Source: a virus (lineage: Duplodnaviria; Heunggongvirae; Uroviricota; Caudoviricetes). From it: 23,498 nucleotides of DNA. This document shows positions 199-22,316 of the stretch, one piece after another. The notes under the pieces are model-generated. The model searched no databases, was not told the DNA's origin, and saw only the letters and a program-made list of their open reading frames with translations. Numbering within the stretch: position 1 is the first letter of the stretch; each line of letters begins with the position of its first letter. The translations under genes were made by a program, and so were the position numbers. The stretch lies in the IMG/VR virus record IMGVR_UViG_2537561944_000018. One strand, given 5' to 3'.

Positions 199-2136
199 TC
201 ATGCCGCAGTGTCTGTGCTGTTCACTTCCACCGCAATGCTGTCTATCAGTACCGGGTAAGTCGCATTCCTGGTAATGTCTGTCACATGCAGTTTATCCGC
301 CGCAAATGCACTGACCGGTGACTGCGTCAGCGTGAACGGTGTGCCATCCTGACCATCAATAACCGGCGTCACCTGAAGGCTGTTATTCCCGGCAAAGCGG
401 AAAGCCAGCGTATGCCATTCGTTATCAAATGCGCCAAAGGTTCCCAGTTTCAGGTTGTTTGTCGCCACTTTCGCATTGTGGTACATCACATTCAGGTCTT
501 TTGCATCTGTCTGGATGTAGGACGCTGCCAGCAGGTTATTCCCCCCGTCTCCGGTCAGGGCAACGCCCTGTGGCAGTGAAGAGACCGGCCAGTAAAACGC
601 CATAACATACTGGTTCGCAGCCAGCGCTCCCGAAACCTTAAAGCGGCAGCGAATCTGCCCCCCTTTCTGTAACAGAGCCGCACCGTTGCCCGCGGCGTAC
701 TCCAGCACCCAGCTGCTTTTACCGGCTTCCTTGGTCAGCTTCACTGCCTTACCTCCGGTTCCCTCCGCATCGCTGACCACTTCTGCCCTGCCGCCACTGG
801 CTGACCATCCCTGTACTTTCAGGCTTCCCTCTGACTCGCTGGCAAGGTAAGAGAGCAGTGTTGTGACGCCTGTGGCTTCTGCACCGGAAGGCGATGAAGG
901 GCGCACCTCTGATACTGTCGATGATGCCCCCGCGTTTAGCGCCACTCTTCCCGCATGGCGCAAAATCGCCGTTGCCAGACGGTCGGAAATAATCCCACGG
1001 CGTGCCCAGGCGCTGAAATGGCTCGCCCTGTCCTGTGACGTCCAGGTGGCTGAGCTGTCACGCCATTTCGAACCGTAATATCCGATACCCGGAATGTCCG
1101 GGTCTTCTTCCGGTTTGTTCGTCGGCACATTCACCCCGTTCTCATCGGTCATGAACGGTACGAAATGGATATTCTTTTCCGTTTTGTTTTTATAGCTGCC
1201 GTACACCGTCTGGTACGTGGATTCGTTCTTCTGCTTCCAGAAATACGTCGTATCTCCACATATCCAGGGAACACCGCCAGCAGAGCCACCGACGCACTGA
1301 CCTGCCATATCCGCCAGGTCTGCACGGAATTTATCAACCAGCGCACCAAACTGTGCTGCGTGATTTGCCGGCGTACCGCCAAAATCAAATTCCCCCTGCA
1401 TCCACACCACGGCAAACAGCACATTTTTCGGATTCTTCTTCAGTGCTGCTTTTGTTCGACCGATAAGGTCCTTATACAGCGGCTTGTCCACACCCCAGCG
1501 GGTTGAATTCTCCGAGGCACCACTCGCGTCACTGTATGTGCCATCGGCTCCGGTGGTGAACGCTGAACCACCACGACAGCACGGAACCAGCAGAATGCCC
1601 GCATTCGCCGGTATAAACGGCAGCAATTTTTTGGCGATATGCAGCCCTTGCCCCACGGTTCCGTACTGCCCCTTTGACAGGTCCGCTTTCGGATGGTTAA
1701 GGCGGCTCATGTCCTGCACATCATGCAGACAATGGTCCGCCGGAATGATGTCGTTATATTTACAGGCGACACCGCCCGGTGTCACCGTACTGCGACGCGC
1801 CAGCTGCTTAATGCGCGGGTCCGGACGGTCATATGTCTCCGGCAGCGGAAGGCCTTCACCATATGCCATGCTGTTTGACTGCCCCGCCAGAACCACAACA
1901 AAGTAATACTCCGGGTCTCTGGTGGCGCTGATTACTGTGCCTTCTCCATCCGACGGCTTCACCAACACAGGTGTGGTGACATCACCTTCCGCCGCAATGG
2001 CCTGCATCAGAGTATAAGGCGTGATGGCCACCGGGCTGCCAAATGGCTGCCACCCCTCCTTCAGTTTTTGTGTCAGCTTTTCCGCAAGGTCTGACGGCGA
2101 CGCCGCCCTGACAACATCATAATGTTTAATCGACAT
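199..2136 (-). CDS. NanS-p-type prophage sialate O-acetylesterase (SGNH/SASA hydrolase domain), 645 aa
   Basis: 645-aa ORF with a GQSN-type SGNH motif (VVLAGQSNSMAYGEG); ATG at 2136 preceded by GGGAGAA; size and position match prophage NanS-p proteins as recalled. Confidence 0.8.
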   Translation of the reverse strand: MSIKHYDVVRAASPSDLAEKLTQKLKEGWQPFGSPVAITPYTLMQAIAAEGDVTTPVLVKPSDGEGTVISATRDPEYYFVVVLAGQSNSMAYGEGLPLPETYDRPDPRIKQLARRSTVTPGGVACKYNDIIPADHCLHDVQDMSRLNHPKADLSKGQYGTVGQGLHIAKKLLPFIPANAGILLVPCCRGGSAFTTGADGTYSDASGASENSTRWGVDKPLYKDLIGRTKAALKKNPKNVLFAVVWMQGEFDFGGTPANHAAQFGALVDKFRADLADMAGQCVGGSAGGVPWICGDTTYFWKQKNESTYQTVYGSYKNKTEKNIHFVPFMTDENGVNVPTNKPEEDPDIPGIGYYGSKWRDSSATWTSQDRASHFSAWARRGIISDRLATAILRHAGRVALNAGASSTVSEVRPSSPSGAEATGVTTLLSYLASESEGSLKVQGWSASGGRAEVVSDAEGTGGKAVKLTKEAGKSSWVLEYAAGNGAALLQKGGQIRCRFKVSGALAANQYVMAFYWPVSSLPQGVALTGDGGNNLLAASYIQTDAKDLNVMYHNAKVATNNLKLGTFGAFDNEWHTLAFRFAGNNSLQVTPVIDGQDGTPFTLTQSPVSAFAADKLHVTDITRNATYPVLIDSIAVEVNSTDTAA

Positions 2137-2449
2137 CGAATTTCTCCCGTGTACAGGAACAGAGTTAAAAAGCCGGAACCGGAATCAAATTACAGGATGG
2201 CCATCTGCCAGTGGCTGGTCGTAAAAAAAGGCCACGCCATGCGCAGCCGGAAATAAAGGGATAACGATGATAGTTTGAGAAAAACAGAAACAACACTTTT
2301 GTGGCAAAGCATGGTGCCGGGTGCCTCCCGGTGAATTCAGTATCAGCACCTGAATCCGCGATTATCCCATATACCTGGTTGCTGATCGCCCCTCCGCACA
2401 GGGGGATTCACCATGCAGAAGTGTTTTTAATAAACAGCAAACAAAAAAA

Positions 2450-2617
2450 TCAAGCATTATGCAGGCTGTTTCTTTTTATCACCGGCCACAGCAATACCAC
2501 AATGCCGCAGACCAGCACCCCATCCGCCAGCACCGACATGATTCTGCTGGTGAAATCCACCATCACCACCAGAAACAGCAGGAGTGCAGCCACAGCCAGG
2601 CGCAGTTTTACCGTCAC
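2450..2617 (-). CDS. Small hydrophobic two-helix protein (55 aa), coupled to the TerB-like gene
   Basis: GTG at 2617-2615 overlaps the TerB-like TGA (2616-2614) as GTGA; product VTVKLRLAVAALLLFLVVMV...VLVCGIVVLLWPVIKRNSLHNA; GGAG 8 nt upstream. Below the ORF-track size cutoff. Confidence 0.4.
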   Translation of the reverse strand: MTVKLRLAVAALLLFLVVMVDFTSRIMSVLADGVLVCGIVVLLWPVIKRNSLHNA

Positions 2618-3045
2618 AGGTGATTCTCCAGACGAAGACCCAGAACACCGGCAATCTCTTCCAGCACCTTGCGCTCTTCCGGCTCAATTTCGCCGTCTGC
2701 CTCCGCAATGGCCACCGCCACATCCAGCACATCTTCCGCTTCACGCGTATCGTGTTTCACATCCTCAATCTCGCGTAACGCGGCACGACGACCAATTTTA
2801 AAATTGGTATCCAGCTGACCGATAATAGTTGCGCTAATCGCATTAATTTCCGAGGTAAACGCAGACAACGCAGGCTGATTACGTAAGACCTGTTCGATCT
2901 TCGCTTTCTCGGATGCCTCGCATTCACCATCTGCATAGGCCACCAGGTATGCAGCGTTAATCACCGCCTGTGCCAGATCGCGTTTCTCAAACTTTTTAAT
3001 TTCCGCTGCCGCTCTGCGGGTTTTCTTTTTGAAGATTCCAAACAT
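2614..3045 (-). CDS. TerB-domain (tellurite-resistance TerB-like) protein, 143 aa
   Basis: Internal ATG at 3045 with AGGAA 9 nt upstream; C-terminal VAIAEADGEIEPEERKVLEEIAGVLGL resembles TerB as recalled. The track ORF begins earlier at a non-ATG codon. Confidence 0.7.
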   Translation of the reverse strand: MFGIFKKKTRRAAAEIKKFEKRDLAQAVINAAYLVAYADGECEASEKAKIEQVLRNQPALSAFTSEINAISATIIGQLDTNFKIGRRAALREIEDVKHDTREAEDVLDVAVAIAEADGEIEPEERKVLEEIAGVLGLRLENHL

Positions 3046-3177
3046 CGTGACGTTCCTTTGGGTGGGTGAGCCAACGCCCGGGAGCGATCTGCCCACAGAG
3101 AAAGTCACACTGACCACTCCGTAAGCTCACCCCCGAAAGGCTCTGTGGTTGATATGCGCCGGGCGTGGCGCAGATAC

Positions 3178-3214: not shown

Positions 3215-3291
3215 TGGCGCGTTGTAGTGGAGTCGAACCACTGACCGATTGCTTAGAAGGCAATTGCTCTGTCCGACTGAGCTAACAACGC
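3215..3291 (-). tRNA. tRNA-Arg (anticodon UCU), CCA encoded
   Basis: 77-nt cloverleaf: acceptor GCGTTGT/ACAACGC, D-arm GCTC..GAGC, anticodon stem ATTGC/GCAAT with loop CTTCTAA, T-arm AGTGG-TTCGACT-CCACT. Confidence 0.9.
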
Positions 3292-3304
3292 ATGATGCTG
3301 ATAA

Positions 3305-3381
3305 TGGACCGCCATCGGGGACTTGAACCCCGCGCAGCCAGCTTCGAAGGCTGGCGCTCTGTCCCGATGAGCTAATGGCGG
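3305..3381 (-). tRNA. tRNA-Arg (anticodon UCG), CCA encoded
   Basis: 77-nt cloverleaf: anticodon stem CCAGC/GCTGG with loop CTTCGAA, T-loop TTCAAGT; acceptor pairs CCGCCAT with ATGGCGG (C1-G72). Confidence 0.8.
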
Positions 3382-3390
3382 TATGTGATA

Positions 3391-3466
3391 TGGTGGCCCT
3401 TGCTGGATTTGAACCAGCGACCTGGCGATTATGAGTCGCTCGCTCTCACCACTGAGCTAAAGGGCC
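3391..3466 (-). tRNA. tRNA-Ile2-like (anticodon CAU; Met not excluded), CCA encoded
   Basis: 76-nt cloverleaf GGCCCTT...AAGGGCC with anticodon loop CTCATAA; closely resembles E. coli ileX as recalled; first of a three-tRNA cluster as in Stx-type phages. Confidence 0.85.
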
Positions 3467-5324: not shown

Positions 5325-5680
5325 TCACTCTCAATTTTGTAAATCTTCACACCCAGCCGTCCACCAGATACTGGCTGACCGCGCACAATATTGATTTCAT
5401 CAAACTGCTCGTCATCAATGAGCACTTCCGCATGCGTCAGCGCATCCAGCGGTGCTTTCAGAATGTTGTCCAGGTCACGGCGGCGCTTATCCGGTGGCTC
5501 TGCAATCACCTTTATCGCCAGCCTTCCGGACAGGCTTAATTTCAGCCGCTGCTGGCGAACAATAAGCGCCACAGCCCGGCGATAACGCTTTCCCTCCTCC
5601 GAGATAAAATATGTGCTGCCACGGCGTCGCCAGTAAGTGTTCACCGTCGGCGGGTAAGGTAAAACCAAATCTATGAGCAT
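5321..5680 (-). CDS. rusA: Crossover junction endodeoxyribonuclease RusA, 119 aa
   Basis: PYPPTVNTYWRRRG ... RRRDLDN ... GGRL motifs typical of RusA; ATG at 5680 with AGAGGTGA upstream. Confidence 0.9.
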   Translation of the reverse strand: MLIDLVLPYPPTVNTYWRRRGSTYFISEEGKRYRRAVALIVRQQRLKLSLSGRLAIKVIAEPPDKRRRDLDNILKAPLDALTHAEVLIDDEQFDEINIVRGQPVSGGRLGVKIYKIESE

Positions 5681-5692
5681 CAGTCACCTCTT

Positions 5693-6739
5693 TTACCCAA
5701 GCACGCCAGTTGCAAAGGCGTGATCAAGAAAACGAAAAATTAAATCAACCTGAGAACCATGCTTTTCTTCGAACGCCAGCGGATCCGCATGAAGCTCGTT
5801 GTGATGCTCCCGACACAGCGGTAGCGTGAAAATATCGTGAGATTTTGTCCCCATTCCCCCCTGACCATGACCAATCAGGTGATGCGGATCGTCAGCAGGC
5901 TTACCACAACACGCACACGGCTGTGTCTTCACCCAGTGCGTGTATTTCTCGTTAACCCAGCGGCGACGTTTAGGTCGTTTCATGAAAGATTCCGGAGACT
6001 CAGGATCAACGGCAATGCTGACCACCGTCTTTTCCTGTGGCGGTTTTTGCTGGTGAGCGTGAGGCAGCGGCGCAAGATTTTTTGTGCGCTGCTTCAGTAT
6101 GCTGGTGGCGGTCTGCTCTCCCGGTACGATGTCGCTTTCACGGTACATTGAGCGGATTTTTTCCGCACGCAACCCCAGCGAACGACGTAATACCGCTTCC
6201 GGTAGCGCGTCCGCCACCTGATTGCGGACCGCCCACCAGGATAATTCAGCCAGAGATAATTCCCGTTCCTGTGCACCACTTATTGCGTGACGTATGACGT
6301 CAATCATCCAGGCTGTCAGATTTTGTTGAGCAAGCTGCCCGAGTGATTCGGATGTCTGGTCGCGCAGCTGGTTGTCGCAGTGCCAGCACAACACCATTGC
6401 GCCGGTACCATAACGGTGAATGACGGTTTCGCTGTGATGATAATCGCCGTGTGGCCACTGGCAGGATTTAATATGGCGCAACAGCCAGTCAGACAATGCA
6501 CCAGCACCACCAGCAGCACGAATCACCCGTGCGTTACTGAAAAACGGCAGCAATGTTTTGTCTTCCACTAGCGGCTGGCGAACGGCAGGAACAACCCCGG
6601 ACGGCAGATTACGCATGCTTTTCGGTTCCGGCTCCACCAGTACCCGGGTATTGTGGAATACCGGCATGGATTCACGACCCGGCTTAACGATCACCAGCCC
6701 GAGTTCCGGTACCAGAACAGGTCGAAGTAATACCCGCAC
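5693..6739 (-). CDS. DUF968 (YdfU-like) protein with C-terminal HNH-like Cys/His motif, 348 aa
   Basis: GTG start at 6739 one nt after the upstream TAA and preceded by GGAGG; C-terminal CACCGKPADDPHHLIGH...CREHHNELH. Confidence 0.8.
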   Translation of the reverse strand: MRVLLRPVLVPELGLVIVKPGRESMPVFHNTRVLVEPEPKSMRNLPSGVVPAVRQPLVEDKTLLPFFSNARVIRAAGGAGALSDWLLRHIKSCQWPHGDYHHSETVIHRYGTGAMVLCWHCDNQLRDQTSESLGQLAQQNLTAWMIDVIRHAISGAQERELSLAELSWWAVRNQVADALPEAVLRRSLGLRAEKIRSMYRESDIVPGEQTATSILKQRTKNLAPLPHAHQQKPPQEKTVVSIAVDPESPESFMKRPKRRRWVNEKYTHWVKTQPCACCGKPADDPHHLIGHGQGGMGTKSHDIFTLPLCREHHNELHADPLAFEEKHGSQVDLIFRFLDHAFATGVLG

Positions 6740-6740
6740 G

Positions 6741-7013
6741 TTACCTCCAGATGCGTTGCTGGAATGTGCGGGACGGACGCGGCGGGCGTTCGGAATAAAG
6801 GAGCCTGACGTAGATTATCCAGTGACGGTAGTCGAGGCTAAGGGCTTTCTTAAACTCATACCCACGTCTGCGGTAGTTATGAATCAGCCATTCGGCCTGT
6901 TCTTCAGTGCAGGGATCGTGCTGATACCAGTCATATTTGAATGTGTGAGAACACCGCCCTTGCCTGCTGGCAGGGGCGATATCAGAATTGTGATGTTTGG
7001 TATTGTGCGCCAT
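6741..7013 (-). CDS. Hypothetical protein (about 90 aa from ATG 7013)
   Basis: Stop TAA 6743-6741 abuts the DUF968 GTG, and the DUF968 SD lies in its 3' end; own start signals are weak. Confidence 0.45.
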   Translation of the reverse strand: MAHNTKHHNSDIAPASRQGRCSHTFKYDWYQHDPCTEEQAEWLIHNYRRRGYEFKKALSLDYRHWIIYVRLLYSERPPRPSRTFQQRIWR

Positions 7014-7085
7014 CGGTTTTCTCTGCTGGCGCAGCAGGTGCCAGTTGTTCAAGCTGGCGTGCGGCAATATTGTCTCTGATTTCTG

Positions 7086-7113
7086 TTGTCGTCAACAGGC
7101 AACGTGCTATCAT
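7086..7113 (+). promoter_or_regulatory. Candidate sigma70 promoter for the parDE-like operon
   Basis: TTGTCG (7086-7091), 16-bp spacer, TATCAT (7108-7113); SD GTGAGG at 7137-7142 precedes the ATG. Confidence 0.35.
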
Positions 7114-7148
7114 CGAATGGTGTTCTATCCTACTCCGTGAGGTTTACC

Positions 7149-7406
7149 ATGCGTACAACCCAACAATTCAGCATTACATTAACTAACGAAATGGCTGACA
7201 TGGTGCGCGCCCGTGTGGCTTCCGGTGCCTATGCTTCAGAAAGCGAGGTCATTCGTGAAGGGCTTCGCGCACTGAATGAGCGCGATAAAGCAATCGAAGC
7301 GTGGTTAACGCATTCAGCCGCCCCCTCTCTTGATTCTATCCGCGAAAATCCAAACAACGGACGCTCCATTTCACAGGTTCGCGCCGCGATTCGATCCGGG
7401 AAGTAA
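7149..7406 (+). CDS. parD: ParD/CopG-type RHH antitoxin, 85 aa
   Basis: ATG at 7149 with GTGAGG 6 nt upstream; ...ASESEVIREGLRALNERDKAIEAWL typical of ParD-like antitoxins. Confidence 0.75.
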   Translation: MRTTQQFSITLTNEMADMVRARVASGAYASESEVIREGLRALNERDKAIEAWLTHSAAPSLDSIRENPNNGRSISQVRAAIRSGK

Positions 7407-7411
7407 TCTGC

Positions 7412-7711
7412 ATGACATATGAAGTCATCATTACTCCTGAGGCCGAACAACAAATAATCAACCTGCACAGGTATATAACGGAGAAAGCAGGGAACGTCAT
7501 TGCTGACAATTATGCCAATGCGCTTCTTGATTATCTTGATGGGTTTTCTACATTCCCGCATCGGGGCAATAAACGCGATGATATTCGCCAGGGGATGCGG
7601 GTAACTCATTTCCGCCACAGAACGATTATTGCTTTTGCCGTTGATAGCAGAAAAGTCTTTATTGTCGGTATCTATCATGGTGGGCAAAGTTATGAAACCG
7701 ATTTCTTATAA
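7412..7711 (+). CDS. parE: ParE/RelE-superfamily toxin, 99 aa
   Basis: Starts 5 nt after the antitoxin stop; RelE/ParE fold signature (...RQGMRVTHFRHRTIIAFAVDSRKVFIVGIYHGGQSYE). Confidence 0.8.
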   Translation: MTYEVIITPEAEQQIINLHRYITEKAGNVIADNYANALLDYLDGFSTFPHRGNKRDDIRQGMRVTHFRHRTIIAFAVDSRKVFIVGIYHGGQSYETDFL

Positions 7712-7794
7712 ACTTTTACCCACATCATTCCGGTGTTAGAATTAACCGTCCGCCCCCTCTCTTACTGGCGGATTCGTAGGCTATATAAATCAAA

Positions 7795-7828
7795 GATCCC
7801 GGCTCATGTTTATGTCGGGATCTTTTTT
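7795..7828. terminator. Bidirectional terminator between convergent parDE and the minus-strand operon
   Basis: GATCCCG (7795-7801) / CGGGATC (7816-7822), 14-nt loop, T6 on plus (7823-7828); U-rich stretch on the minus side. Confidence 0.55.
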
Positions 7829-7835
7829 CGGCGAT

Positions 7836-7919
7836 TTATCCCCAGCGGCAAATCGAATACACCACCAGCGCCACCGCCATCGCAATTCCTACCGTTGTGA
7901 ATGCTTCAGGCCAGGTCAT
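7836..7919 (-). CDS. 27-aa hydrophobic peptide, coupled to the upstream gene
   Basis: ATG 7919-7917 overlaps the upstream TGA (ATGA); GGAGG 10 nt upstream; [27 protein letters not shown]; stop TAA 7838-7836 just before the terminator. Below the ORF-track cutoff. Confidence 0.4.
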
Positions 7920-8260
7920 CGTAAAATATCCTCCACGCTTATCAGTCCGTTCCGCTCCAGATAACTCATCGCCTTATCCGGTAATTTGCAGTCTGGCTTC
8001 GCTTTCCTCAGTTGCCAGGTTAACTGCTTTACCAGCATGGTTAACTCATCGACCAGACGCTGATATCCCACTGGTTTGTATTCATGCAATTTACCGGCTG
8101 GCTCTGCTGCCAGCGATACCAGTGCGATTTCCAGAACAGCAATATCCATCTTATATGTGCGGATGATGTCATGGTCGATTGTGCCCGGTATGCACAGTCT
8201 CTGTGTTTCAATAGTCTCCTCTGCGTGAGCTATTAACTGCTCTCTGGTAAAAGTCGTCAT
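7916..8260 (-). CDS. Hypothetical protein, 114 aa
   Basis: ATG at 8260 overlaps the HNH gene stop (ATGA); no family recognised. Confidence 0.6.
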
Positions 8261-8622
8261 GCCGTAGCCCCTTCTTGATATTTTTCAAACCAGAACACAA
8301 CTGGGTCAGATTTCATTTCAACCAATCCCATACGAACCAGCGCTTTGCCTTTCCCGGACGCAAGGAATTCACGACGACCATCACTGATAATTCGCCGATA
8401 ATCTTCCAGACTACTGCAATGCTTGTGCAGATTGCATGGGTGGCATGCCGGAACCATGTTGGATATATCGTCACGTTCCTGGTGAAGCATATTTCCATCA
8501 AAACGAATGACCGGTTTTACATGGTCTGCATGCCACTTTTCGCCAAGTTCGCAGCCGCAATAAGCACAGCGACCGCCGAACTTCATGCGCAGCTCTGCAC
8601 GTTGTTTTTTCGTCAGTGCCAT
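8257..8622 (-). CDS. HNH endonuclease, 121 aa
   Basis: Internal ATG at 8622 with AAGGA upstream; CAYCGCEL...HADHVKPV...CHPCN HNH motif. Confidence 0.8.
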
Positions 8623-8623
8623 A

Positions 8624-8842
8624 TCAGCTTTCCTTATACGGATTAATTTTATTGTGCAGTGTGCTGAACGACGCCCACACCACGTCGTTATACAATTCAA
8701 TAACTGGCTCAATTATTTTCACGATAAACCAGACCAGTAATAGCGGGGGTATCGGTATCATCAACACGATAAATATAATGAGAAACAAAAATTCTGTCGC
8801 TCTACTTTTTCTCGGATATTCTTTTCTGAATAATGTAGTCAT
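8624..8842 (-). CDS. Small membrane protein, 72 aa
   Basis: ATG at 8842; central hydrophobic stretch FLFLIIFIVLMIPIPPLLLVWFIVKII; stop TGA 1 nt before the HNH ATG. Confidence 0.5.
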   Translation of the reverse strand: MTTLFRKEYPRKSRATEFLFLIIFIVLMIPIPPLLLVWFIVKIIEPVIELYNDVVWASFSTLHNKINPYKES

Positions 8843-8847
8843 TTCTT

Positions 8848-8872
8848 ACCGCCCTTTCAGGCGGCCTCCTGA
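8848..8872 (-). promoter_or_regulatory. SD-hairpin element, copy 1 (structured ribosome-binding site)
   Basis: Minus RNA UCAGGAGG-CCGCCU-GAAA-GGGCGG, 6 nt before the AUG at 8842; 24/25 identical to 9920-9944. Confidence 0.5.
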
Positions 8873-8929
8873 TGTTTTGAGGGTGCAGAAATCCCTCCGG
8901 TTAAGGATTAAATTTTTAACTAAATTTAA

Positions 8930-9565
8930 TTATTCAGGCGCGATAAGCTGTTCCGCACAATCCAGCAATGCTTCTGTCGCTTCCTTAAGCGTTACTGTAT
9001 CGCTATCATCCAGTCCTGCAACTTTTTCGTACCTGACAAACGCCGCGCAAAGCTCGTTAAACAACCCCGCCCGTACTTCAGCCAGGAAAGCGTCGGTGGC
9101 CGGAGTTTCAGGAATCCGTCTCCTCATCCGTTCTATTGCATGATTGAACCCGAAATCTTCAGCAAGAGATACGTCATCCATATTGTCATTGTCGTCCTCA
9201 ATATCCCGTGGTTCTGGAATTGCAGACTTTATTACCGCATTCTCCGCCGCCAGCGCCACAAGATTAGCTTTCAGCTCTGCAATTCGTTTGTTTTGGGCTT
9301 CCCGTTCATCCAGTAGTGCCAGCGCAACATTTGGATTAAAAGCAGCAATAAATTCAGCGTTTGCATAAGCCTGAACATCTGTTTCAACCAGGCAGTTAAC
9401 ATGACATTCTGCAATTACGCCACCGGGCTCTCCTTTCCATTTTTGACAAACAAAAACTCCTGTTATATTCCCATGCTGATTGCCCGATGTATGCCCTACG
9501 ATGTAGCATCCTTTAGTTGCTTTCTCTGCTGCTTCACGCAGCGCCTGATAGTCAATCTCGCTCAT
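8930..9565 (-). CDS. Ead/Ea22-like protein, 211 aa
   Basis: N-terminal MSEIDYQALREAAEKATKG characteristic of Ea22-like proteins as recalled; ATG overlaps the upstream stop (ATGA). Confidence 0.75.
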   Translation of the reverse strand: MSEIDYQALREAAEKATKGCYIVGHTSGNQHGNITGVFVCQKWKGEPGGVIAECHVNCLVETDVQAYANAEFIAAFNPNVALALLDEREAQNKRIAELKANLVALAAENAVIKSAIPEPRDIEDDNDNMDDVSLAEDFGFNHAIERMRRRIPETPATDAFLAEVRAGLFNELCAAFVRYEKVAGLDDSDTVTLKEATEALLDCAEQLIAPE

Positions 9566-9738
9566 TCATCGCCCCACTCATCACAATATGCTTCGACCGG
9601 ATTTTTTCCTGCTTCATAATCATCACGCCATGCTTCAGCATCAGCAGCACTGCCACCACGTAACTCTGCATATTCCATTAACAGTTCATGCCATTCTTCA
9701 AAACTGACGCTGTATTTAGTTGAACCAAAATCAGCCAT
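9562..9738 (-). CDS. Hypothetical acidic small protein, 58 aa
   Basis: ATG at 9738 (4 nt before the upstream TGA), stop overlaps the Ea22-like ATG; MADFGSTKYSVSFEEWHELLMEYAELRGG.... Below the ORF-track cutoff. Confidence 0.5.
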   Translation of the reverse strand: MADFGSTKYSVSFEEWHELLMEYAELRGGSAADAEAWRDDYEAGKNPVEAYCDEWGDE

Positions 9739-9913
9739 TTTGTTCTTCCTCTTCGTCTTTTATTTCGTGATATGAATAATTGCAGTAGTTAAAGAAAATA
9801 TCTTTTGCTTCGTCATGTATTTCATCAGGCGTCGCATCATCATCCACTTCGAATTCATCCTCGAAATCTCCACCGGCTATTCCCGTTTCAATAATTATTT
9901 TAAACTTTCGCAT
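9731..9913 (-). CDS. Hypothetical acidic small protein, 60 aa
   Basis: ATG at 9913 preceded by SD-hairpin copy 2; coupled to the downstream ORF. Confidence 0.55.
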   Translation of the reverse strand: MRKFKIIIETGIAGGDFEDEFEVDDDATPDEIHDEAKDIFFNYCNYSYHEIKDEEEEQNG

Positions 9914-9919
9914 TTAACT

Positions 9920-9944
9920 ACCGCCCTTTCGGGCGGCCTCCTGA
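9920..9944 (-). promoter_or_regulatory. SD-hairpin element, copy 2
   Basis: Minus RNA UCAGGAGG-CCGCCC-GAAA-GGGCGG, 7 nt before the AUG at 9913; the loop-closing pair is C-G here versus U-G in copy 1. Confidence 0.5.
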
Positions 9945-9946
9945 CA

Positions 9947-10159
9947 TTAATCGTTGTGGTAACTCATGGCTTCATTTGCAACATCAACCGGATCAACCTC
10001 CCACCAGCAATAATTTGGTGCGTTTCCTTCAGGTGTCCACGGTTCTAATTCATTTTTTGCCGCATTCTCATCGCCAGTAATTTTAAAAATCTGCTCAGAG
10101 AATTTTCTTGCCCACTCGTTATATTTTTCCGCATTAATGGCTTTCTGTGTATTTAACAT
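9947..10159 (-). CDS. Hypothetical small protein, 70 aa
   Basis: ATG at 10159 with GGAGG 7 nt upstream. Confidence 0.55.
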   Translation of the reverse strand: MLNTQKAINAEKYNEWARKFSEQIFKITGDENAAKNELEPWTPEGNAPNYCWWEVDPVDVANEAMSYHND

Positions 10160-10209
10160 AAATATACCTCCAGTTCAGGATTAGATTTTATTTACAGCGC
10201 TAAATTTAT

Positions 10210-10566
10210 TTATTCAGTTCTGGATTTTGTCGCCCTGCGTATCCGCGCTTTCGCGTTACGTTCAATCTGAATTAACTTTTCTATATTTTTCCGCCTTTCC
10301 TGTTCCTCCTGGCGCAATAGCCTTACATCATCTGCCAGTCTGGTTTCTCTTTTCGCCACAGAGAGCATCCAGTCAAACGGCTCCACAACCGCACCGCAGA
10401 TTTTACAGCGGACCTGGCGCTCTTTTTCGTCAACCCGAACAGAGGCGTGATGACAATATGGTCTTTCCGATGGCTCATAAAGAAAATTAACCTGATTACG
10501 AGGGTCATCCTCTTTTACCGGAAATAAAACGATATTGCTTAACTCATCCTCTGGTTTTATTTCCAT
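10210..10566 (-). CDS. Hypothetical protein with Cys/His zinc-binding motif, 118 aa
   Basis: ATG at 10566 preceded by AAGGAGAGGAG; CHHASVRV...CKICG motif; start overlaps the upstream Ea22-like 3' end. Confidence 0.6.
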   Translation of the reverse strand: MEIKPEDELSNIVLFPVKEDDPRNQVNFLYEPSERPYCHHASVRVDEKERQVRCKICGAVVEPFDWMLSVAKRETRLADDVRLLRQEEQERRKNIEKLIQIERNAKARIRRATKSRTE

Positions 10567-11005
10567 GCTCCTCTCCTTTGATGCGAATGCCAGCGACGCG
10601 TAATGCGTGTTCTAGGTCAATCAGGTAAAGCCAACTGCCATTTTCTTTAGGTATCATGACATGTCGCTCATCTGCATTTATCGGGTGTCCATATCGAAGG
10701 TCGTAGCGAGTCGGTAATTGAACTTCCCGCGCATCCAGTTCAGCAATACGCTTGCTCCCATCAGAGATAACGCCTTCGTAATACTCACGCTGCTCGTTGA
10801 GTTGTGATTTTGCTTCTTCCAGTCCATCCAGCAAACCAGCGATAATATCCGCTTCCCGATGACGGATATGACGCTTAAACGCAGCAAGAGCCGCATCACA
10901 ATCCCGTTCAGCATTTGGGCTGTCCGGGGTAGCCTGATACCACGCCAGCGTCGACTGATAGTTTTGTGCTGCCTCACGAAGCGCCTCATAGTTAACCTCT
11001 CTCAT
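10544..11005 (-). CDS. Ead/Ea22-like protein (paralog), 153 aa
   Basis: N-terminal MREVNYEALREAAQ; AGGAGG 7 nt upstream of ATG 11005; ATGA overlap with the DUF4406 stop. Confidence 0.7.
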   Translation of the reverse strand: MREVNYEALREAAQNYQSTLAWYQATPDSPNAERDCDAALAAFKRHIRHREADIIAGLLDGLEEAKSQLNEQREYYEGVISDGSKRIAELDAREVQLPTRYDLRYGHPINADERHVMIPKENGSWLYLIDLEHALRVAGIRIKGEEHGNKTRG

Positions 11006-11298
11006 CGAGCCACCTCCTGATAAATCACCGCATGCCCCAGTTTCTCCGCCAGTGCCAGCTCTGCCTTAGCGCCCGCTGACCGCTGCCAGCCATTCAGCAT
11101 GTAAATCGCATCCACACAACGAATCATTGCCATGCAAATATCCATGTAGTGCGGCTGTGTCAGCCCGTCCGGAAGTACTGCCGGAGTTAAGACGGTATGC
11201 CCTTCCCGTTTCAGTTCCTCTTCCGCCTTGTGAAACGCCTCACGGTTGAAATTTTCATATCCCGTCATTGGACCGGCAATATAAACTCTCACCCTCAC
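11002..11298 (-). CDS. DUF4406-like protein (nucleoside deoxyribosyltransferase-like fold), 98 aa
   Basis: GTG at 11298 preceded by AGGAGG with 7-nt spacing and overlapping the upstream TGA (GTGA); VYIAGPMTGY motif. Confidence 0.65.
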   Translation of the reverse strand: MRVRVYIAGPMTGYENFNREAFHKAEEELKREGHTVLTPAVLPDGLTQPHYMDICMAMIRCVDAIYMLNGWQRSAGAKAELALAEKLGHAVIYQEVAR

Positions 11299-11687
11299 TC
11301 CATCACCTCCTGAAAGTTTCCCCGATAGAACGCCAGCACACGCTGCATAACTTCGCTCTGGCGGCACTCACGACAAATTATGTTCTGCCGTCTGTTGTAA
11401 CGACGTATTTCTCCGTCAGGTAACTTTCGAATCAGTGTCGGGTCAGCAGCCTTCTCCGGTGTCTTACGCCATACGCGATACGCCTGCTCTGATGGAAATA
11501 CCCCGCAACCAGAGAGCCAGACATCACCACTGGCCGCAAGCGCACCAGATAAACGACGAATAGCGGTCTTACTGACACCCGTTTTATCTGCCAGTTGTCG
11601 AAAAGTTTCTCGTCCGCTCAGGCGCACGAATTCCACAATGCGCGCCTTCACTTCTTCCCGCTCTTCTGGTGTAAATTCTTTTGCCAT
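11295..11687 (-). CDS. Hypothetical HTH-containing protein, 130 aa
   Basis: ATG at 11687 with GGAGG 5 nt upstream; HTH-like TFRQLADKTGVSKTAIRRL and a C-terminal CRECRQ. Confidence 0.6.
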   Translation of the reverse strand: MAKEFTPEEREEVKARIVEFVRLSGRETFRQLADKTGVSKTAIRRLSGALAASGDVWLSGCGVFPSEQAYRVWRKTPEKAADPTLIRKLPDGEIRRYNRRQNIICRECRQSEVMQRVLAFYRGNFQEVME

Positions 11688-12024
11688 AAGCGCCTCCGGC
11701 AATCACTTTTCCGATACAACACGGCGGGAAGAATCAGTAATCTGTCGAACAATATCCCGGTGCTTGTTCAGCTCCCGCAGCGCGGCGCAGACTCGCTCCC
11801 ACTTCTGAACCTGACCTTTTGCCCGGCGCAGCTCGCGGTTAGCCACATGCAGCGATGGTAAAATCAGACCATCCGGATGTTTTCTGGTGAACGACGGCTG
11901 TGACTGCACTGTGACCGCCACACTTTCCGTTTTTATTTCTTCCTGTGTTTCTGCTTCCCGTGAGGTAGCCTGAGTTTAACGGACACTCCTTCCTGAAATA
12001 GAATGGCATCAGAAGGAGCTAATA

Positions 12025-12327
12025 ATGAGCAGAAAAACCCAACGTTACTCTAAAGAGTTCAAAGCCGAAGCTGTCAGAACGGGTCTCGAAAATCAACTTT
12101 CGATCAGTGAAGGCGCTTCCCGATTATCTCTTCCTGAAGGCACTTTAGGACAATGGGTTACCGCCGCCAGAAAAGGGCTCGGTACTCCTGGTTCCCGCAC
12201 GGTGGCTGAACTGGAATCTGAAATTCTGCAACTGCGTAAGGCGTTAAATGAAGCTCGCCTTGAGCGAGATATATTAAAAAAAGCAACAGCGTATTTTGCA
12301 CAGGAGTCGCTGAAAAATACGCGTTAA
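12025..12327 (+). CDS. IS3-family transposase OrfA (HTH), 100 aa
   Basis: ATG at 12025; MSRKTQRYSKEFKAEAVR... typical IS3-family OrfA with a leucine-zipper-like C-terminus. Confidence 0.8.
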   Translation: MSRKTQRYSKEFKAEAVRTGLENQLSISEGASRLSLPEGTLGQWVTAARKGLGTPGSRTVAELESEILQLRKALNEARLERDILKKATAYFAQESLKNTR

Positions 12328-13181
12328 TCGAACAATGGCGACAACAATTTCCCATTGAAGCGATGTGTCAGGTATTTGGTGTATCCAGGAGCGGTTATTA
12401 CAACTGGGTACAGCATGAACCCTCAGACAGAAAACAAAGTGATGAGCGGCTAAAACTGGAGATTAAGGTGGCACATATCCGCACTCGCGAAACATATGGA
12501 ACCCGGCGGCTCCAGACGGAGCTGGCAGAGAATGGCATCATCGTTGGTCGTGACCGACTGGCACGTCTTCGTAAGGAGCTAAGGCTACGCTGTAAGCAGA
12601 AACGCAAGTTCAGAGCGACTACGAACTCGAACCACAATCTGCCAGTTGCGCCAAATCTGCTGAACCAGACGTTCGCTCCTACAGCACCAAATCAGGTCTG
12701 GGTGGCGGACCTGACGTATGTTGCCACACAGGAGGGATGGTTGTACCTCGCTGGCATCAAAGATGTTTATACGTGCGAAATTGTCGGCTACGCCATGGGA
12801 GAGCGCATGACAAAAGAGCTGACAGGTAAAGCTCTGTTTATGGCGCTCAGGAGCCAGCGCCCACCTGCCGGGCTAATCCACCACTCTGATCGAGGTTCAC
12901 AGTACTGCGCATACGATTACCGGGTCATACAGGAGCAGTTTGGTCTGAAAACATCAATGTCGCGTAAAGGTAACTGTTACGACAACGCTCCGATGGAAAG
13001 CTTCTGGGGAACGCTGAAAAATGAGAGCCTGAGCCACTATCGTTTTAATAACCGGGATGAAGCCATCTCAGTAATACGGGAATACATTGAGATTTTCTAC
13101 AATCGTCAGCGTCGTCACTCTCGTCTGGGGAATATCTCCCCGGCAGCCTTCAGGGAAAAATATCATCAGATGGCTGCTTAA
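12264..13181 (+). CDS. IS3-family transposase OrfB (DDE/rve integrase domain), made as an OrfAB fusion by -1 frameshift
   Basis: The -1 frame is open from 12264; slippery A AAA AAA G at 12276-12283 inside orfA; DDE motifs (...HHSDRGSQY...YDNAPMES...). Confidence 0.75.
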   Translation, partial: ARYIKKSNSVFCTGVAEKYALIEQWRQQFPIEAMCQVFGVSRSGYYNWVQHEPSDRKQSDERLKLEIKVAHIRTRETYGTRRLQTELAENGIIVGRDRLARLRKELRLRCKQKRKFRATTNSNHNLPVAPNLLNQTFAPTAPNQVWVADLTYVATQEGWLYLAGIKDVYTCEIVGYAMGERMTKELTGKALFMALRSQRPPAGLIHHSDRGSQYCAYDYRVIQEQFGLKTSMSRKGNCYDNAPMESFWGTLKNESLSHYRFNNRDEAISVIREYIEIFYNRQRRHSRLGNISPAAFREKYHQMAA

Positions 13182-13728
13182 AAAAAGAACAAATGGTAGT
13201 GTCCGCTATTGCCAGTACACCTCACCGAACTGGTAACGCAACACCTGCTGGCTGAGGAAAGGCTTTACCATCGGTTTCCGCTACGGATGCAGCTTCCGGC
13301 TCTGCCGGTAAATCAGCGCCCGGTATGCAGTAACGAAATTTACCGCCCTGATTCACGCGAATCAGACGCCCTTTGCTGATTACCATGGCCAGCGATGAAT
13401 TCGCCCGGCGGGAGGTAATCCCGAACATCAGTGCCAGCTCATCCGCCGTTTGTGGGCCATGTTGTTCAATCGCCTCAGTCAGCATTTGCGCTGTCACTTT
13501 CGGTACCGGTGACACCGGTTCACTTTCACCAGCCTGAATCAGCCACCACATCGACCCCTTGTTATCCGCTTCACCGCGGCGCTTCAGTTTCCACAGTTCG
13601 TTGACCGCATCTTCACGGCTGATTCCAAGGCGGGCCGCCACTACCTGTGAAGAGGCTCTTTTCAGTGCTTTCAGTGCGTCAAATACGGTTTCCATTAAAA
13701 TTTCCTCCGACAAAATCGTTTCTCAGAT

Positions 13729-18468: not shown

Positions 18469-18526
18469 TTTCTGGTGACGTTTGGCGGTATCAGTTTTAC
18501 TCCGTGGCTGCTCTGCCGCCCTTTTT
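18469..18526 (+). ncRNA. dicF: DicF small regulatory RNA with its U-tail terminator
   Basis: TTTCTGGTGACGTTTGGCGGTATCAGTTTTACTCCGTGGCTGCTCTGCCGCCC followed by T5; matches the DicF sequence as recalled, with one apparent A-to-G difference; lies just upstream of the dicB homologue. Confidence 0.8.
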
Positions 18527-19163: not shown

Positions 19164-21083
19164 ATGAGTAAAGTCTTTATTTGCGCCGCCATTCCGGACG
19201 AACAGGCAATAAAGGAAGAAGGTGCAGTCGCTGTAGCCACTGCCATTGAAGCCGGTGATGAACGTCGCGCCCGCGCAAAATTTCACTGGCAATTCCTGGA
19301 ACATTATCCGGCTGCTCAGGACTGCGCTTATAAATTTCTTGTTTGCGAGGATAAACCCGGTATTCCCCGCCCTGCCCTCGATTCCTGGGATGCTGAATAT
19401 ATGCAGGAAAACCGCTGGGATGAGGAGTCTGCTTCCTTTGTCCCGGTTGAGACTGAATCAGATCCGATAAACGTCACTTTTGACAAGCTGGCCCCTGAAG
19501 TACAGAACGCTGTCATGGTTAAGTTCGACACATGTGAAAACATCACCGTTGATATGGTGATTAGCGCGCAGGAACTGTTGCAGGAAGACATGGCAACATT
19601 CGACGGACATATCGTTGAAGCGTTGATGAAAATGCCAGAAGTTAACGCCATGTATCCGGAGCTTAAGCTGCATGCCATCGGGTGGGTTAAGCATAAATGT
19701 AAGCCAGGTGCCAAATGGCCCGAAATTCAGGCAGAGATGCGCATCTGGAAAAAACGTCGCGAAGGTGAACGCAAGGAAACCGGAAAATACACGTCTGTTG
19801 TTGATCTCGCCCGCGCCAGAGCCAATCAACAGCACACTGAAAATTCAACAGGAAAAATCAGCCCGGTCATTGCTGCCATTCATCGCGAATACAAGCAGAC
19901 ATGGAAAACACTGGATGACGAACTGGCCTACGCTCTCTGGCCTGGTGATGTGGATGCCGGAAACATTGACGGCAGCATCCATCGCTGGGCAAAAAATGAA
20001 GTTATCGACAACGACCGCGAAGACTGGAAGCGTATCTCGGCATCAATGCGCAAACAGCCTGATGCCCTTCGCTACGACCGCCAGACTATTTTTGGCCTTG
20101 TCCGTGAACGTCCGATCGACATTCACAAAGACCCTGTGGCACTGAACAAATACATTACTGAATACCTGACTACAAAGGGCGTGTTTGAAGATGAAGGAAC
20201 AAATCAGAGCGCAACTGATACTCTCTCGTCGCCAGTACCAGAAACTGATGCAGTGGAAACGGCAATTCCGGACAACGAAAAAACCGAATGCAAAGTGGAA
20301 GTCGAACCATCTGTAGAGCGTGAGGGGCCGTTCTACTTCCTCTTCACCGACAAGGATGGCGAAAAATACGGTCGCGCAAACAAACTTTCTGGTCTGGATA
20401 AGGCACTGGCTGCCGGGGCTACTGAAATCACGAAAGAAGAATATCTTGCCCGCAAAAACGGAACATACACGGACTTACCGCAAAATGTGGATACCGCTGA
20501 AGATTCCGTACAACCGGAGCCGGTAAAAGTTACCGCTGACGAAGTAAACAAAATTATGCAGGCAGCCAATATCAGCCAGCCTGACGCCGATAAATTGCTT
20601 GCTGCATCACGTGGTGAATTTGTTGAAGGGATTAGCGATCCGAATGATCCGAAATGGGTGAAGGGGATTGAAACCTGCGATTCTGTGAACCAGAACCAGC
20701 AAGAATCGGAACAGAACGACCAGAAAACGGAACAAAACAGCCCAAATGCGCAACAAAACGAGCCAGAAACGAAACAGGAGCCGGAAAAAGCCTGCACCGC
20801 CTGCGGTCAGACCGGCGGCGGTAGCTGCCCTGATTGTGGTGCGGTGATAAGTGACGCAACATACCAGGAAATATTCGATGAAGAGAATCAGCCTGAAGTT
20901 CAGGAAAATGATCCGGAGGAAATGGAAGGCACTGCGCATCAGCACAAGGAGAACACTGGCGGCAATCAGCATCATGCCAGCGATAGTGAAACTGGCGAGG
21001 CGTCAGATCCCTTAATTAAGGCGAACGGTCATCATAATCTCACATCACCAGCAGAGCGGGATTCATCTGATGATCGACCTTGA
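19164..21083 (+). CDS. Large YdfE-like protein of unknown function, 639 aa, acidic Q/E/N-rich C-terminus with a Cys4 motif
   Basis: ATG at 19164 with GAGGT upstream; CTACGQTGGGSCPDCG near the C-terminus; occupies the ydfE position after ydfD; no enzymatic motif recognised. Confidence 0.7.
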   Translation: MSKVFICAAIPDEQAIKEEGAVAVATAIEAGDERRARAKFHWQFLEHYPAAQDCAYKFLVCEDKPGIPRPALDSWDAEYMQENRWDEESASFVPVETESDPINVTFDKLAPEVQNAVMVKFDTCENITVDMVISAQELLQEDMATFDGHIVEALMKMPEVNAMYPELKLHAIGWVKHKCKPGAKWPEIQAEMRIWKKRREGERKETGKYTSVVDLARARANQQHTENSTGKISPVIAAIHREYKQTWKTLDDELAYALWPGDVDAGNIDGSIHRWAKNEVIDNDREDWKRISASMRKQPDALRYDRQTIFGLVRERPIDIHKDPVALNKYITEYLTTKGVFEDEGTNQSATDTLSSPVPETDAVETAIPDNEKTECKVEVEPSVEREGPFYFLFTDKDGEKYGRANKLSGLDKALAAGATEITKEEYLARKNGTYTDLPQNVDTAEDSVQPEPVKVTADEVNKIMQAANISQPDADKLLAASRGEFVEGISDPNDPKWVKGIETCDSVNQNQQESEQNDQKTEQNSPNAQQNEPETKQEPEKACTACGQTGGGSCPDCGAVISDATYQEIFDEENQPEVQENDPEEMEGTAHQHKENTGGNQHHASDSETGEASDPLIKANGHHNLTSPAERDSSDDRP

Positions 21084-21612
21084 AACCATGGGAAAAAATC
21101 CTGATGCCCCGATTATCTCAATAGGTGCAATATTTTTCGATCCGCAAACCGGAGAGATGGGGCCAGAATTCAGCAAAACTATCGATCTGGAAACTGCTGG
21201 CGGAGTCATTGATCGGGACACCATTAAGTGGTGGCTGAAACAGTCACGCGAAGCGCAATCCGCCATTCTTACCGATGAAATCCCGTTAGATGATGCACTG
21301 CTGCAATTACGGGAATTTATCGACGAAAACTCCGGTGAATTTTTTGTTCAGGTCTGGGGTAACGGTGCAACTTTCGACAACGTGATTTTACGCCGTTCAT
21401 ATGAACGGCAGGGGATCCCCTGCCCGTGGCGTTACACCAATGATCGCGATGTAAGAACGATGGTTGCTCTGGGACTGGTGATGGATTTCGACGCAAGAAC
21501 GACTATTCCATTCGAAGGTGAACGCCATAACGCTCTGAACGATGCACGTTACCAGGCGAAATACGTTTCAGCCATCTGGCAAAAACTGCTCCCGAGTCAG
21601 GCTGATTTTTGA
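21070..21612 (+). CDS. DEDDh-family (DnaQ-like) 3'-5' exonuclease, 180 aa
   Basis: Exo motifs IDLETMG, WGNGATFD and HNALNDARY; start overlaps the upstream gene by 14 nt. Confidence 0.8.
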   Translation: MIDLETMGKNPDAPIISIGAIFFDPQTGEMGPEFSKTIDLETAGGVIDRDTIKWWLKQSREAQSAILTDEIPLDDALLQLREFIDENSGEFFVQVWGNGATFDNVILRRSYERQGIPCPWRYTNDRDVRTMVALGLVMDFDARTTIPFEGERHNALNDARYQAKYVSAIWQKLLPSQADF

Positions 21613-21679
21613 TGTTCAACCCATATCGCCGCCCACCAGCTATAGTGGCGGCGGTCATGCTGTAAAGGCACGTGACCAC

Positions 21680-21922
21680 ATGTACGAATTAACTCTATCT
21701 CCAGCAGAGATTAAAGAGATCACGAAATACGAGCGATACACAAAACAGCAACACCAGTTAAGACTGCACGGCATCCCATTTGTAATCGGCCCTAAAAACG
21801 AACCCATAGTTCTCCGCAGGGATATTCCACACGGTCTGACAACGATGCCAAAAACATCTGAACTGGTTTCTGCTGAACCCGATTTTGAGGCGCTGAACAA
21901 TGGGAAGACCAAGAAAAAATAA
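21680..21922 (+). CDS. xis: Excisionase-like protein, about 80 aa
   Basis: Internal ATG at 21680; resembles lambda Xis in size and position; 3' end overlaps the int start by 23 nt. Start signals are weak. Confidence 0.55.
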   Translation: MYELTLSPAEIKEITKYERYTKQQHQLRLHGIPFVIGPKNEPIVLRRDIPHGLTTMPKTSELVSAEPDFEALNNGKTKKK

Positions 21923-22277: not shown

Positions 22278-22316
22278 ACCGCCCCGGGTTTCCTGGAGAG
22301 TATTTTATCTGTGAAC

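Follow-up and report, generated by a model that had tools for sequence, protein, structure and literature searches.

A conserved junction unit with a predicted split ribosome-binding site recurs between unrelated small genes in accessory arrays of Escherichia coli lambdoid prophages

The modular theory of how lambdoid phages evolve includes conserved boundary sequences, or linkers (Susskind & Botstein 1978; Botstein 1980; Clark et al. 2001, on HK620), as summarised in two later accounts (PMC3233612; PMC2839356). Whether phage mosaicism arises by homologous exchange at such linkers or by random illegitimate joins followed by selection is an old and unsettled question (PMC3233612). The promoter-early stem-loop (PeSL) elements of T4-type phages are mobile regulatory cassettes (Arbiol et al. 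2010, PMC2839356; PMC4122927), and in T4 genes 38 and 25, the Shine-Dalgarno (SD) sequence is split from the AUG by a hairpin, which reduces a spacing of 22 nt to 5 nt and one of 27 nt to 11 nt (Nivinskas et al. 1999; Malys & Nivinskas 2009; reviewed in PMC3014915). Here, we describe a junction unit of ~95 nt that is present in two copies, one of them split, in a stretch of 23,498 nt (virus record IMGVR_UViG_2537561944_000018; hereafter, the window, meaning this stretch at its full length) and that recurs at junctions between unrelated small genes in many other prophages. The window is an E. coli lambdoid prophage, and positions 8200-11400, where both copies are located and all genes lie on the minus strand, are 100% identical to the prophage of E. 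coli O26 RM8426.

A previous reading of the letters alone (hereafter, the sequence-only reading) had noticed that similar stretches follow the stops of two genes, and both were found where it had placed them, on the minus strand immediately past the stop codons at 8930 and 10210. We refer to the two copies of this repeat as A and A'. Their first block follows the pattern CTGAATAA(T/A)TAAATTTAG with a single mismatch between 8920-8937 and 10200-10217, and CTGAATAAWTAAATTTAG has exactly two matches in the 23.5-kb window, at these same positions (0.06 expected; none of 100 shuffles gives two). The second block, which comes after a 7-nt length difference between the copies and has the pattern AAAT(T/C)TAATCCT(T/G)AAC(C/T)GGAGG (...AATCCTKAACYGGAGG), occurs in the window only at 8894-8915 and 10167-10188 (0.00 expected) and was recovered in the repeat search as a 26-nt pair with 85% identity. 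Gapped local alignment of A with A' aligns 47 columns, of which 41 are identical, and introduces 7 gap columns, that is, 87% identity without and 76% with gaps; the estimate by eye had been ~80% over ~45 nt. The score of this alignment, 27.5, compares with 9.1±1.7 (maximum 17) in dinucleotide shuffles, none of 2000 of which reaches it, so that low-complexity AT-rich sequence does not account for the similarity; no other place in the window gives a comparable score.

A second and stronger repeat, B (TCAGGAGGCCGCC(Y)GAAAGGGCGGTA), is found at 8847-8872 (B1) and 9919-9944 (B2), with 25 of 26 positions matching (0.00 expected), and is the better-defined junction of the two. Between the first linker copy and B1 are 22 nt, and a further 5 nt separate B1 from the ATG of a DUF4014 gene downstream; B2 directly follows the stop of an open reading frame (ORF) of 70 amino acids (aa) and precedes the ATG of a DUF7167 gene by 6 nt. 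In phage vB_EcoS-813R8, a zinc-ribbon (Zn-ribbon) protein gene is followed by A, 22 nt, B and, directly, DUF7167; because of this contiguous order, A and B are the halves of one ~95-nt unit. The sequence-only reading thus covered the 5' half, A, but missed the 3' half with its ribosome-binding site and hairpin. On the mRNA strand, the unit opens with the final codons and the stop of the gene before it (CTGAATAA). An AU-rich spacer leads to a first SD (SD1, GGAGG), which is separated by 22 nt from a second, strong SD (SD2, AGGAGG); next comes a 7-bp G+C hairpin closed by a GAAA loop and, 5-8 nt further on, the AUG of the next gene.

The intact, or 'empty', copy of the unit occupies 8843-8937 and aligns end to end with the Zn-ribbon-to-DUF7167 intergenic region of vB_EcoS-813R8 and with five other contexts. 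Its A half comprises a 5' block (CTGAATAATTAAATTTAG, 8920-8937), which holds the TAA stop (8930-8932) of a 211-aa Ea22-like ORF, and a 3' block (AAATTTAATCCTTAACCGGAGG, 8894-8915) with SD1 at 8894-8898. In B1, SD2 (8865-8870) is followed by the hairpin (8848-8865; predicted dG -11.8 kcal/mol), a 5-nt spacer, AAGAA, and the ATG at 8842. The other copy is one unit that is split by the 70-codon ORF. Its 5' half, A' (10160-10217), carries SD1 at 10167-10171, with the ATG of the 70-aa ORF at 10159, 7 nt past the GGAGG, and its 3' half spans 9914-9946, with SD2 at 9937-9942, the hairpin at 9920-9937 (predicted dG -14.4 kcal/mol), AGTTAA and the ATG at 9913. No other state was seen among ~130 A-containing instances in the fetched contigs, of which 105 have A-22 nt-B and ~27 have A-70-aa ORF-B, and the 70-aa ORF is the sole occupant of the unit in the census. 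When present, it is predicted to be served by SD1; in the empty state, no start codon follows SD1. The 22-nt filler of the empty state could be a remnant of this ORF, given that GGAGGGATTTCTG resembles GGAGGTATATTTATG with ATG changed to CTG, although the 3' part of the filler gives no convincing alignment.

All upstream ORFs that end inside the unit share the same TAA, which leaves a terminal Glu. We considered a universal three-frame stop and rejected it: CTGAATAATTAA does contain stops in three frames, yet the real upstream ORFs all use that one TAA. Conservation of a weak predicted hairpin within the empty unit (hairpin 1, GAGGG/CCCTC, 8879-8897, minus strand), which would sequester SD1, was rejected as well: variants that break its pairs are common (GGATGG in 15 loci, CACCATC and others), and both this hairpin and parts of A vary freely.

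Prophages of E. coli that are lambdoid, Rac/Qin-like or of the Shiga toxin (Stx) kind carry the unit in their arrays of accessory genes. A blastn search with the 98-nt unit found it in 2622 of 5426 complete E. coli genomes (48%), at 4266 places, with up to 6 per genome and three in each of the O157:H7 strains. Among 50,697 phage records, 19 carry the unit, all of them of E. coli type, and each half of the unit matched more than 120 IMG/VR contigs. Two records bear the names of other bacteria. PP818812.1 ('Actinobacillus phage vB_Apl-pPE4') has a unit of E. coli type at 11313-11414, with 91% identity and with neighbouring genes 92% identical, and looks like a case of doubtful host assignment or a phage of enterobacterial origin. 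A 3-kb scaffold (JAIHTM010000290.1, 1380-1680) of a metagenome-assembled genome labelled 'Collinsella sp.' combines the unit with a DUF7167 gene of 98% identity and is probably a mis-binned fragment of an E. coli prophage. A search for DUF7167 in species-representative genomes returned three loci (one E. coli-like, one from Shigella and one from a remote Bacilli metagenome-assembled genome) and no diverged comparators. The hairpin sequence had no match in a literature search, outside which fell a comparison with the boundary sequences of HK620 (Clark et al. 2001). No description of this unit was met in the searchable literature; the kind of element to which it belongs, the lambdoid boundary sequence, is already known.

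The unit joins a variety of genes, with at least 8 families represented upstream of it and at least 5 downstream. In the window and in 180-191 other instances (180 with enough flanking sequence to classify the genes on both sides, and 191 for start-codon spacing), the unit runs from an upstream stop codon to a downstream start codon. Nine classes of upstream ORF were recognized (Zn-ribbon, the 70-aa ORF, three Ea22-like or unnamed ORFs, DUF977, methyltransferase, DUF4406 and one doubtful ORF) and six classes of downstream ORF (DUF7167, DUF4014, the TELTKEQLIEE family, antiterminator Q [PF06530], a 43-aa ORF and one fusion), and the flanking families are unrelated by Pfam. These occur in 25 upstream-downstream combinations, with Zn-ribbon being the most frequent upstream neighbour (70 of 180 instances). 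The corresponding bipartite graph, with 25 edges and 15 nodes, has a cycle rank of 11, so that, had each family joined the unit only once, no fewer than 11 exchanges at it would be required. For instance, the 70-aa ORF is found with three different downstream genes, each time through B. Whichever family lies downstream, homology ends on the 3' side within ~2 nt of the hairpin; on the 5' side, ORFs terminating in the unit have CTGAATAA as the edge. Other contexts retain, ahead of the unit, relics of 29-58 nt from the 3' end of the Zn-ribbon gene, which suggests that the flank of this gene was the original home of the unit and that some upstream joints are illegitimate deletions. The unit is thus a real, widespread and combinatorial junction element.

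As to what this element does, we think it probable that both stretches in the window are copies of a single conserved unit that acts as a translation restart site and, at the same time, as a homology patch for gene exchange. On the side of exchange, the clearest case is contig L110, in which the alignments to window positions 6724-8872 (99.7% identity) and 9919-11960 (96.9%) overlap by exactly the 26-nt B; L110 therefore corresponds to the window without the 1072 bp that separate B1 from B2 (8873-9944, minus strand, bounded by the two direct repeats), with a single B left. The same junction is present in L056 and L072, in more diverged backgrounds. The product that an exchange between A' and A would be expected to give, Zn-ribbon-unit-DUF4014, exists in five instances. 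Contig L073 (IMGVR_UViG_2671180755_000002, 593-3114) contains two copies of B in tandem Zn-ribbon-A'-70-aa ORF-B segments, which are 92% and 99.8% identical to the window, and looks like the product of an unequal exchange at the unit. Given that the same 26-95 nt stand at equivalent junctions of many prophages, the unit would serve as a patch of homology through which homologous recombination could swap, delete or insert the small genes on either side, and each recombinant would stay correctly terminated and re-initiated, as in the linker idea of Botstein and Susskind. This recombination role is well supported by the pattern of joints, to which the enzymology is our addition. The suggestion of the sequence-only reading that these stretches are boundary sequences of the kind proposed for module exchange between lambdoid phages has thus largely held up, with the unit present in 48% of the genomes, 25 combinations and an exact repeat-bounded indel in L110. 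As a pure conjecture, the free-standing HNH endonuclease encoded beside DUF4014 might, if of the homing type, introduce breaks that stimulate local exchanges.

On the side of translation, B consists of AGGAGG followed by GCCGCC(Y)GAAAGGGCGGU, and the 7-bp stem with its GAAA loop was predicted in every fold. The start codon is located 5-8 nt past the hairpin in 179 of 191 instances, irrespective of the gene, and in these the linear distance from SD2 to the AUG is 22-25 nt (17 nt of hairpin beyond the last G plus the 5-8 nt). Inspection revealed no further SD in the spacer between the hairpin and the AUG. By looping out 18 nt, the hairpin would bring SD2 to a predicted effective distance of 5-8 nt from the AUG, rather than 22-25 nt. 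By analogy, the hairpin probably forms part of a split ribosome-binding site of the T4 gene 38/25 type, a role that we put forward as a reasoned prediction, and the unit would act as a self-contained translation restart site where genes do not overlap. Consistent with an independent restart site, the unit is found only at non-overlapping junctions, and in phage PA28, the DUF4014 gene abuts the preceding gene and no unit is present there.

The structural evidence for the hairpin in B is suggestive only. In a sample of 139 instances anchored on A and comprising 22 B haplotypes, the five inner pairs of the hairpin remain standard pairs in 134. Changes in the 5' arm are mainly C>U, at four sites, giving G.U pairs that are valid only in the RNA of this strand, whereas the 3' arm has G>A at one site only; one haplotype carries a compensated A-U double change, and the loop variants GGCA, UAAA and AAAA are tolerated. 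In a formal covariation test on the 22 haplotypes, paired positions amounted to 92.2% against 92.1% in shuffles, with one compensatory cell, so that the case for an RNA structure rests on thermodynamics, wobble-tolerant changes and spacing.

Besides this covariation result, several observations weigh against the unit being a selected restart site and exchange point. All copies come from E. coli or Shigella and are closely related, so that their conservation could reflect recent spread rather than selection. The upstream joints at 29-58 nt before the unit look like illegitimate deletions, not linker-targeted exchange, and the difference between L110 and the window could also be an insertion in the lineage of the window. 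When the window is compared with ~185 related loci, the points where similarity ends are clustered at the edges of the unit halves (8840-8859, 8920-8939, 9940-9959 and 10160-10179), but because the loci were chosen for a match to A or B, this clustering is partly built in and is supportive rather than independent. The same ascertainment contributes to the low diversity of B, 0.04-0.05 against 0.12-0.39 in the adjoining coding sequence. The 26 nt of B are at the lower limit for efficient homologous recombination, and no RecE/RecT or Red-type domain was detected among the ORFs tested at 19164-23297.

Of the other explanations, the main rival, which we regard as unlikely, takes the unit to be simply the 3' untranslated flank of the Zn-ribbon gene joined to the ordinary ribosome-binding region of the next gene and spread by recent descent, with the mosaicism produced by random illegitimate recombination and selection (the Hendrix model); crossovers would then show no preference for the unit, and the unit would have no special role in translation. 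The prominence of Zn-ribbon upstream and the relics of its 3' end in several contexts fit this account, as do the non-significant covariation and the free variation of hairpin 1 and of parts of A. Furthermore, breakpoints also cluster at gene boundaries that lack the unit (7820-7839, 7900-7919, 10580-10599 and 11280-11319). It fares less well with a 3' edge of homology that stays at the hairpin for every downstream family while the start codon keeps its 5-8 nt, with the 25 combinations and their cycle rank, with an indel in L110 bounded exactly by B, with the three downstream partners that the 70-aa ORF has acquired always through B, and with B being less diverse than the coding sequence next to it.

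A regulatory operator is an improbable alternative, under which the GAAA hairpin between SD2 and the AUG would bind a phage RNA-binding protein (a repressor, an activator or a factor of boxB-like antitermination), so that the unit-linked genes would be co-regulated. One candidate binder is the basic-tailed Zn-ribbon protein encoded just upstream, which has an arginine-rich C-terminus (...ERNAKARIRRATKSRTE) and is the most frequent neighbour of the unit; the hairpin itself is nearly invariant and is located at the ribosome-binding site of unrelated genes, and its GNRA-type loop resembles the loop of lambda boxB. Nevertheless, many loci (for instance, L126, L127 and L128) have the unit without a local Zn-ribbon gene, the loop variants listed above are tolerated, the loop is a tetraloop rather than the boxB pentaloop, inspection showed no boxA-like element beside the hairpin, and Rfam 15 gave no match at gathering score, with noise only (E >= 2) in 8700-10350. 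A nut site consists of a boxA upstream of a pentaloop boxB hairpin and is found near the start of an early operon; with its tetraloop and no boxA-like sequence by inspection, and deep in the operon past the replication genes, the unit was rejected as a nut or boxB site.

Other known kinds of element were considered as well. No promoter-like site was found in A or B on the gene strand, nor did the terminator scan detect anything on that strand, where the hairpin is followed by AAGAAAUG or AGUUAAAUG, with no U-run; an intrinsic terminator was accordingly rejected, the G+C hairpin being present but lacking a U-tract. A weak terminator-like match on the opposite strand (8857-8872) is within chance expectation. 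A transposable element of the miniature inverted-repeat (MITE) or repetitive extragenic palindrome (REP) type was rejected too, as no terminal inverted repeats were seen and every fetched copy is located at a gene junction, at a fixed distance from the start codon. We do not class the unit as a moron, intrinsic terminator, nut site or known RNA family.

The sequence-only reading had also proposed that the two linker copies and the Ea22-like genes close to them are paralogous products of a modular duplication. Such a duplication in situ, whereby an Ea22-like gene and the linker downstream of it would have been copied within this prophage and then diverged, is very improbable, even though two Ea22-family genes and two linker copies do lie within 2 kb in the same orientation. 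Both genes belong to the family: the 211-aa ORF (8930-9565, minus strand) and the 153-aa ORF (10544-11005, minus strand; Ea22-like/RseB-like) match PF13935 (Ead_Ea22) with 3.5e-39 and 135 bits and with 6.2e-11 and 43.5 bits, respectively (cut-off 27), and both match phrog_250, phrog_1667 and phrog_1138. The two are, however, only distant family members that have the N-terminus in common, with BLASTP aligning residues 1-14 alone, 9 of 14 being identical. The underlying DNA patch (MSEIDYQALREAAE at 9522-9565, matched at 10962-11005, minus strand) measures 44 nt and is 82% identical; similarity to other loci often breaks just behind it (9500-9559), and in vB_EcoS-813R8, a different protein starts with MSEVNYQ and then diverges. 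The patch thus looks like a second, in-frame kind of junction and not like evidence of a duplicated module. The gene order also differs, the linker following directly after the Ea22-like gene in one case and with the Zn-ribbon gene in between in the other, and both the A/A' and the B1/B2 repeats flank unrelated genes (Zn-ribbon and the 70-aa ORF versus Ea22-like and DUF4014). Finally, both linker copies have nearer relatives in other genomes than each other: identity between A and A' is 76-87%, while A is ~93% identical to the copy in vB_EcoS-813R8 and A' is identical to copies in at least three other fetched contigs (four occurrences including the window). With unrelated flanks and closer relatives elsewhere, we reject the duplication. 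As a side observation on the 211-aa ORF, RefSeq treats it as a pseudogene 'missing C-terminus' in O26 RM8426 and as intact in the Stx2a phage ArgO145; it matches different PHROGs in patches (residues 1-70, 56-91 and 154-211), which suggests a mosaic protein.

Chance resemblance between two intergenic stretches that are both ~71% A+T can be practically dismissed, with a score ~11 standard deviations above the shuffled mean that none of the 2000 shuffles attains, pattern searches that expect 0.00-0.06 matches, and thousands of homologous copies elsewhere.

The array that holds the two units is transcribed from the minus strand, beginning with DUF977 and DUF4406 (11002-11292), followed by the 153-aa Ea22-like ORF and the 118-aa Zn-ribbon protein gene (10210-10566), whose stop (10210-10212) lies inside A'. 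Between A' and B2 is the 70-aa ORF (phrog_4659, function unknown; 9947-10159), and downstream of B2 is the 60-aa DUF7167 gene (9731-9913; PF23768, 7.9e-15). A 58-aa ORF (9562-9738) overlaps both of its neighbours, at coupled junctions with no unit, and leads to the 211-aa Ea22-like ORF, which ends inside A. B1 is followed by the 72-aa DUF4014 gene (8624-8842; PF13198, 5.7e-22), the free-standing HNH endonuclease gene (8257-8682) directly downstream of it and, last in transcription order and on the same strand, a 114-aa ORF. Most junctions in the array overlap and are thus coupled; only three, after 10210, 9947 and 8930, do not. The replication genes are located upstream of the array, and DUF968, RusA and the late region downstream, so that the description of the array as nin-like is right as to position. 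However, the block from HNH to Zn-ribbon (window 8200-10819) is 99.6% identical to a block of ArgO145 (5382-8349 in the locus compared) that is part of the leftward early 'ea' region and is flanked there by int and by the RecT/exonuclease/SSB genes, which shows one array in two different operons, the other being the rightward operon past the replication genes.

Several other features of the prophage were noted. A ParD/ParE toxin-antitoxin pair (7086-7711, plus strand), in opposite orientation, separates the accessory array from the DUF968/RusA genes and also adjoins the corresponding block in ArgO145. An IS3-family insertion sequence (~11960-13220; ORFs 12025-12327 and 12363-13181, plus strand, with HTH_Tnp_1 and rve) splits a DUF1627 gene into 11703-11921 and 13222-13713, this gene being intact in the otherwise identical O26 RM8426 prophage, and a second IS3-family transposase (22317-23297, minus strand) at the right end of the window is accompanied by an ALIL frameshift pseudoknot (23133-23248, minus strand; RF01497, 115.7 bits). 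The DicF antisense small RNA (18470-18521, plus strand), the STnc100 small RNA (2273-2445, minus strand) and three tRNA genes (3218-3466, minus strand) all score above their Rfam gathering thresholds. By type, this is a Qin/dicB prophage.

Although not conceptually new, the unit offers an abundant and concrete test case for the old question of how phage mosaicism arises, being short, well delimited, present in 4266 copies across 5426 genomes, joined to many unrelated genes and associated with one exact repeat-bounded indel. A split ribosome-binding site beyond the T4 group is predicted as well. In practical terms, recognition of the unit should aid the annotation of start codons and pseudogenes in prophage accessory arrays, for instance, that of the unit-ending Ea22-like gene, on which RefSeq is inconsistent; it flags possible sites of assembly rearrangement in genomes with multiple prophages, such as those of O157 and O26, and marks where adjoining small genes are likely to turn over.

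Compared with the described systems, the unit is closest in kind to the lambdoid linkers, with which it shares a short conserved sequence at gene boundaries of phages whose flanks differ, the coincidence of mosaic joints with that sequence, and the placement of an incoming gene in a correct expression context. Unlike those linkers, it operates on individual small accessory genes, not on functional modules, and has a defined anatomy, with two SDs and a hairpin. The coming and going of single small genes between conserved neighbours, exemplified by the 70-aa ORF within the unit, recalls the morons of lambdoid phages, which, reportedly described by Hendrix and co-workers in 2000, are said to have their own promoter and terminator and often to be oppositely oriented; the 70-aa ORF, in contrast, is co-oriented, has neither promoter nor terminator and appears to borrow SD1 of the unit. 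The likeness to T4 genes 38 and 25 lies in a strong SD far from the AUG (22-27 nt in T4 and 22-25 nt in the unit), with a stable hairpin wholly in between that restores an effective spacing of 5-11 nt in T4 and, by prediction, 5-8 nt here. There is no sequence relationship between the two, and the SD-hairpin of the unit, the function of which is predicted, is portable and serves several unrelated genes. With the PeSL elements, the unit has in common that repeated stem-loop motifs, regulatory in PeSL and possibly so here, occur dispersed in a hyperplastic region made up of small ORFs whose function is unknown, that close relatives differ by insertions and deletions of small ORFs delimited by such repeats, as seen here in L110, and that direct repeats within a genome could excise the genes between them. 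The difference is that PeSL combines a sigma-70 promoter with a terminator and is thus transcriptional, whereas the unit has neither on the gene strand and would be translational, with its stop, SD, hairpin and AUG inside a long operon. It is tempting, if clearly speculative, to regard the unit as the translational lambdoid counterpart of the T4 PeSL, that is, a portable adaptor of stop, SD, hairpin and start that plugs any small gene into a long early operon, that might double as an operator for a phage RNA-binding protein and that, by being identical in co-resident prophages (up to 6 copies per genome), could be a preferred crossover point driving the turnover of accessory, possibly anti-defence, genes in half of E. 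coli strains.

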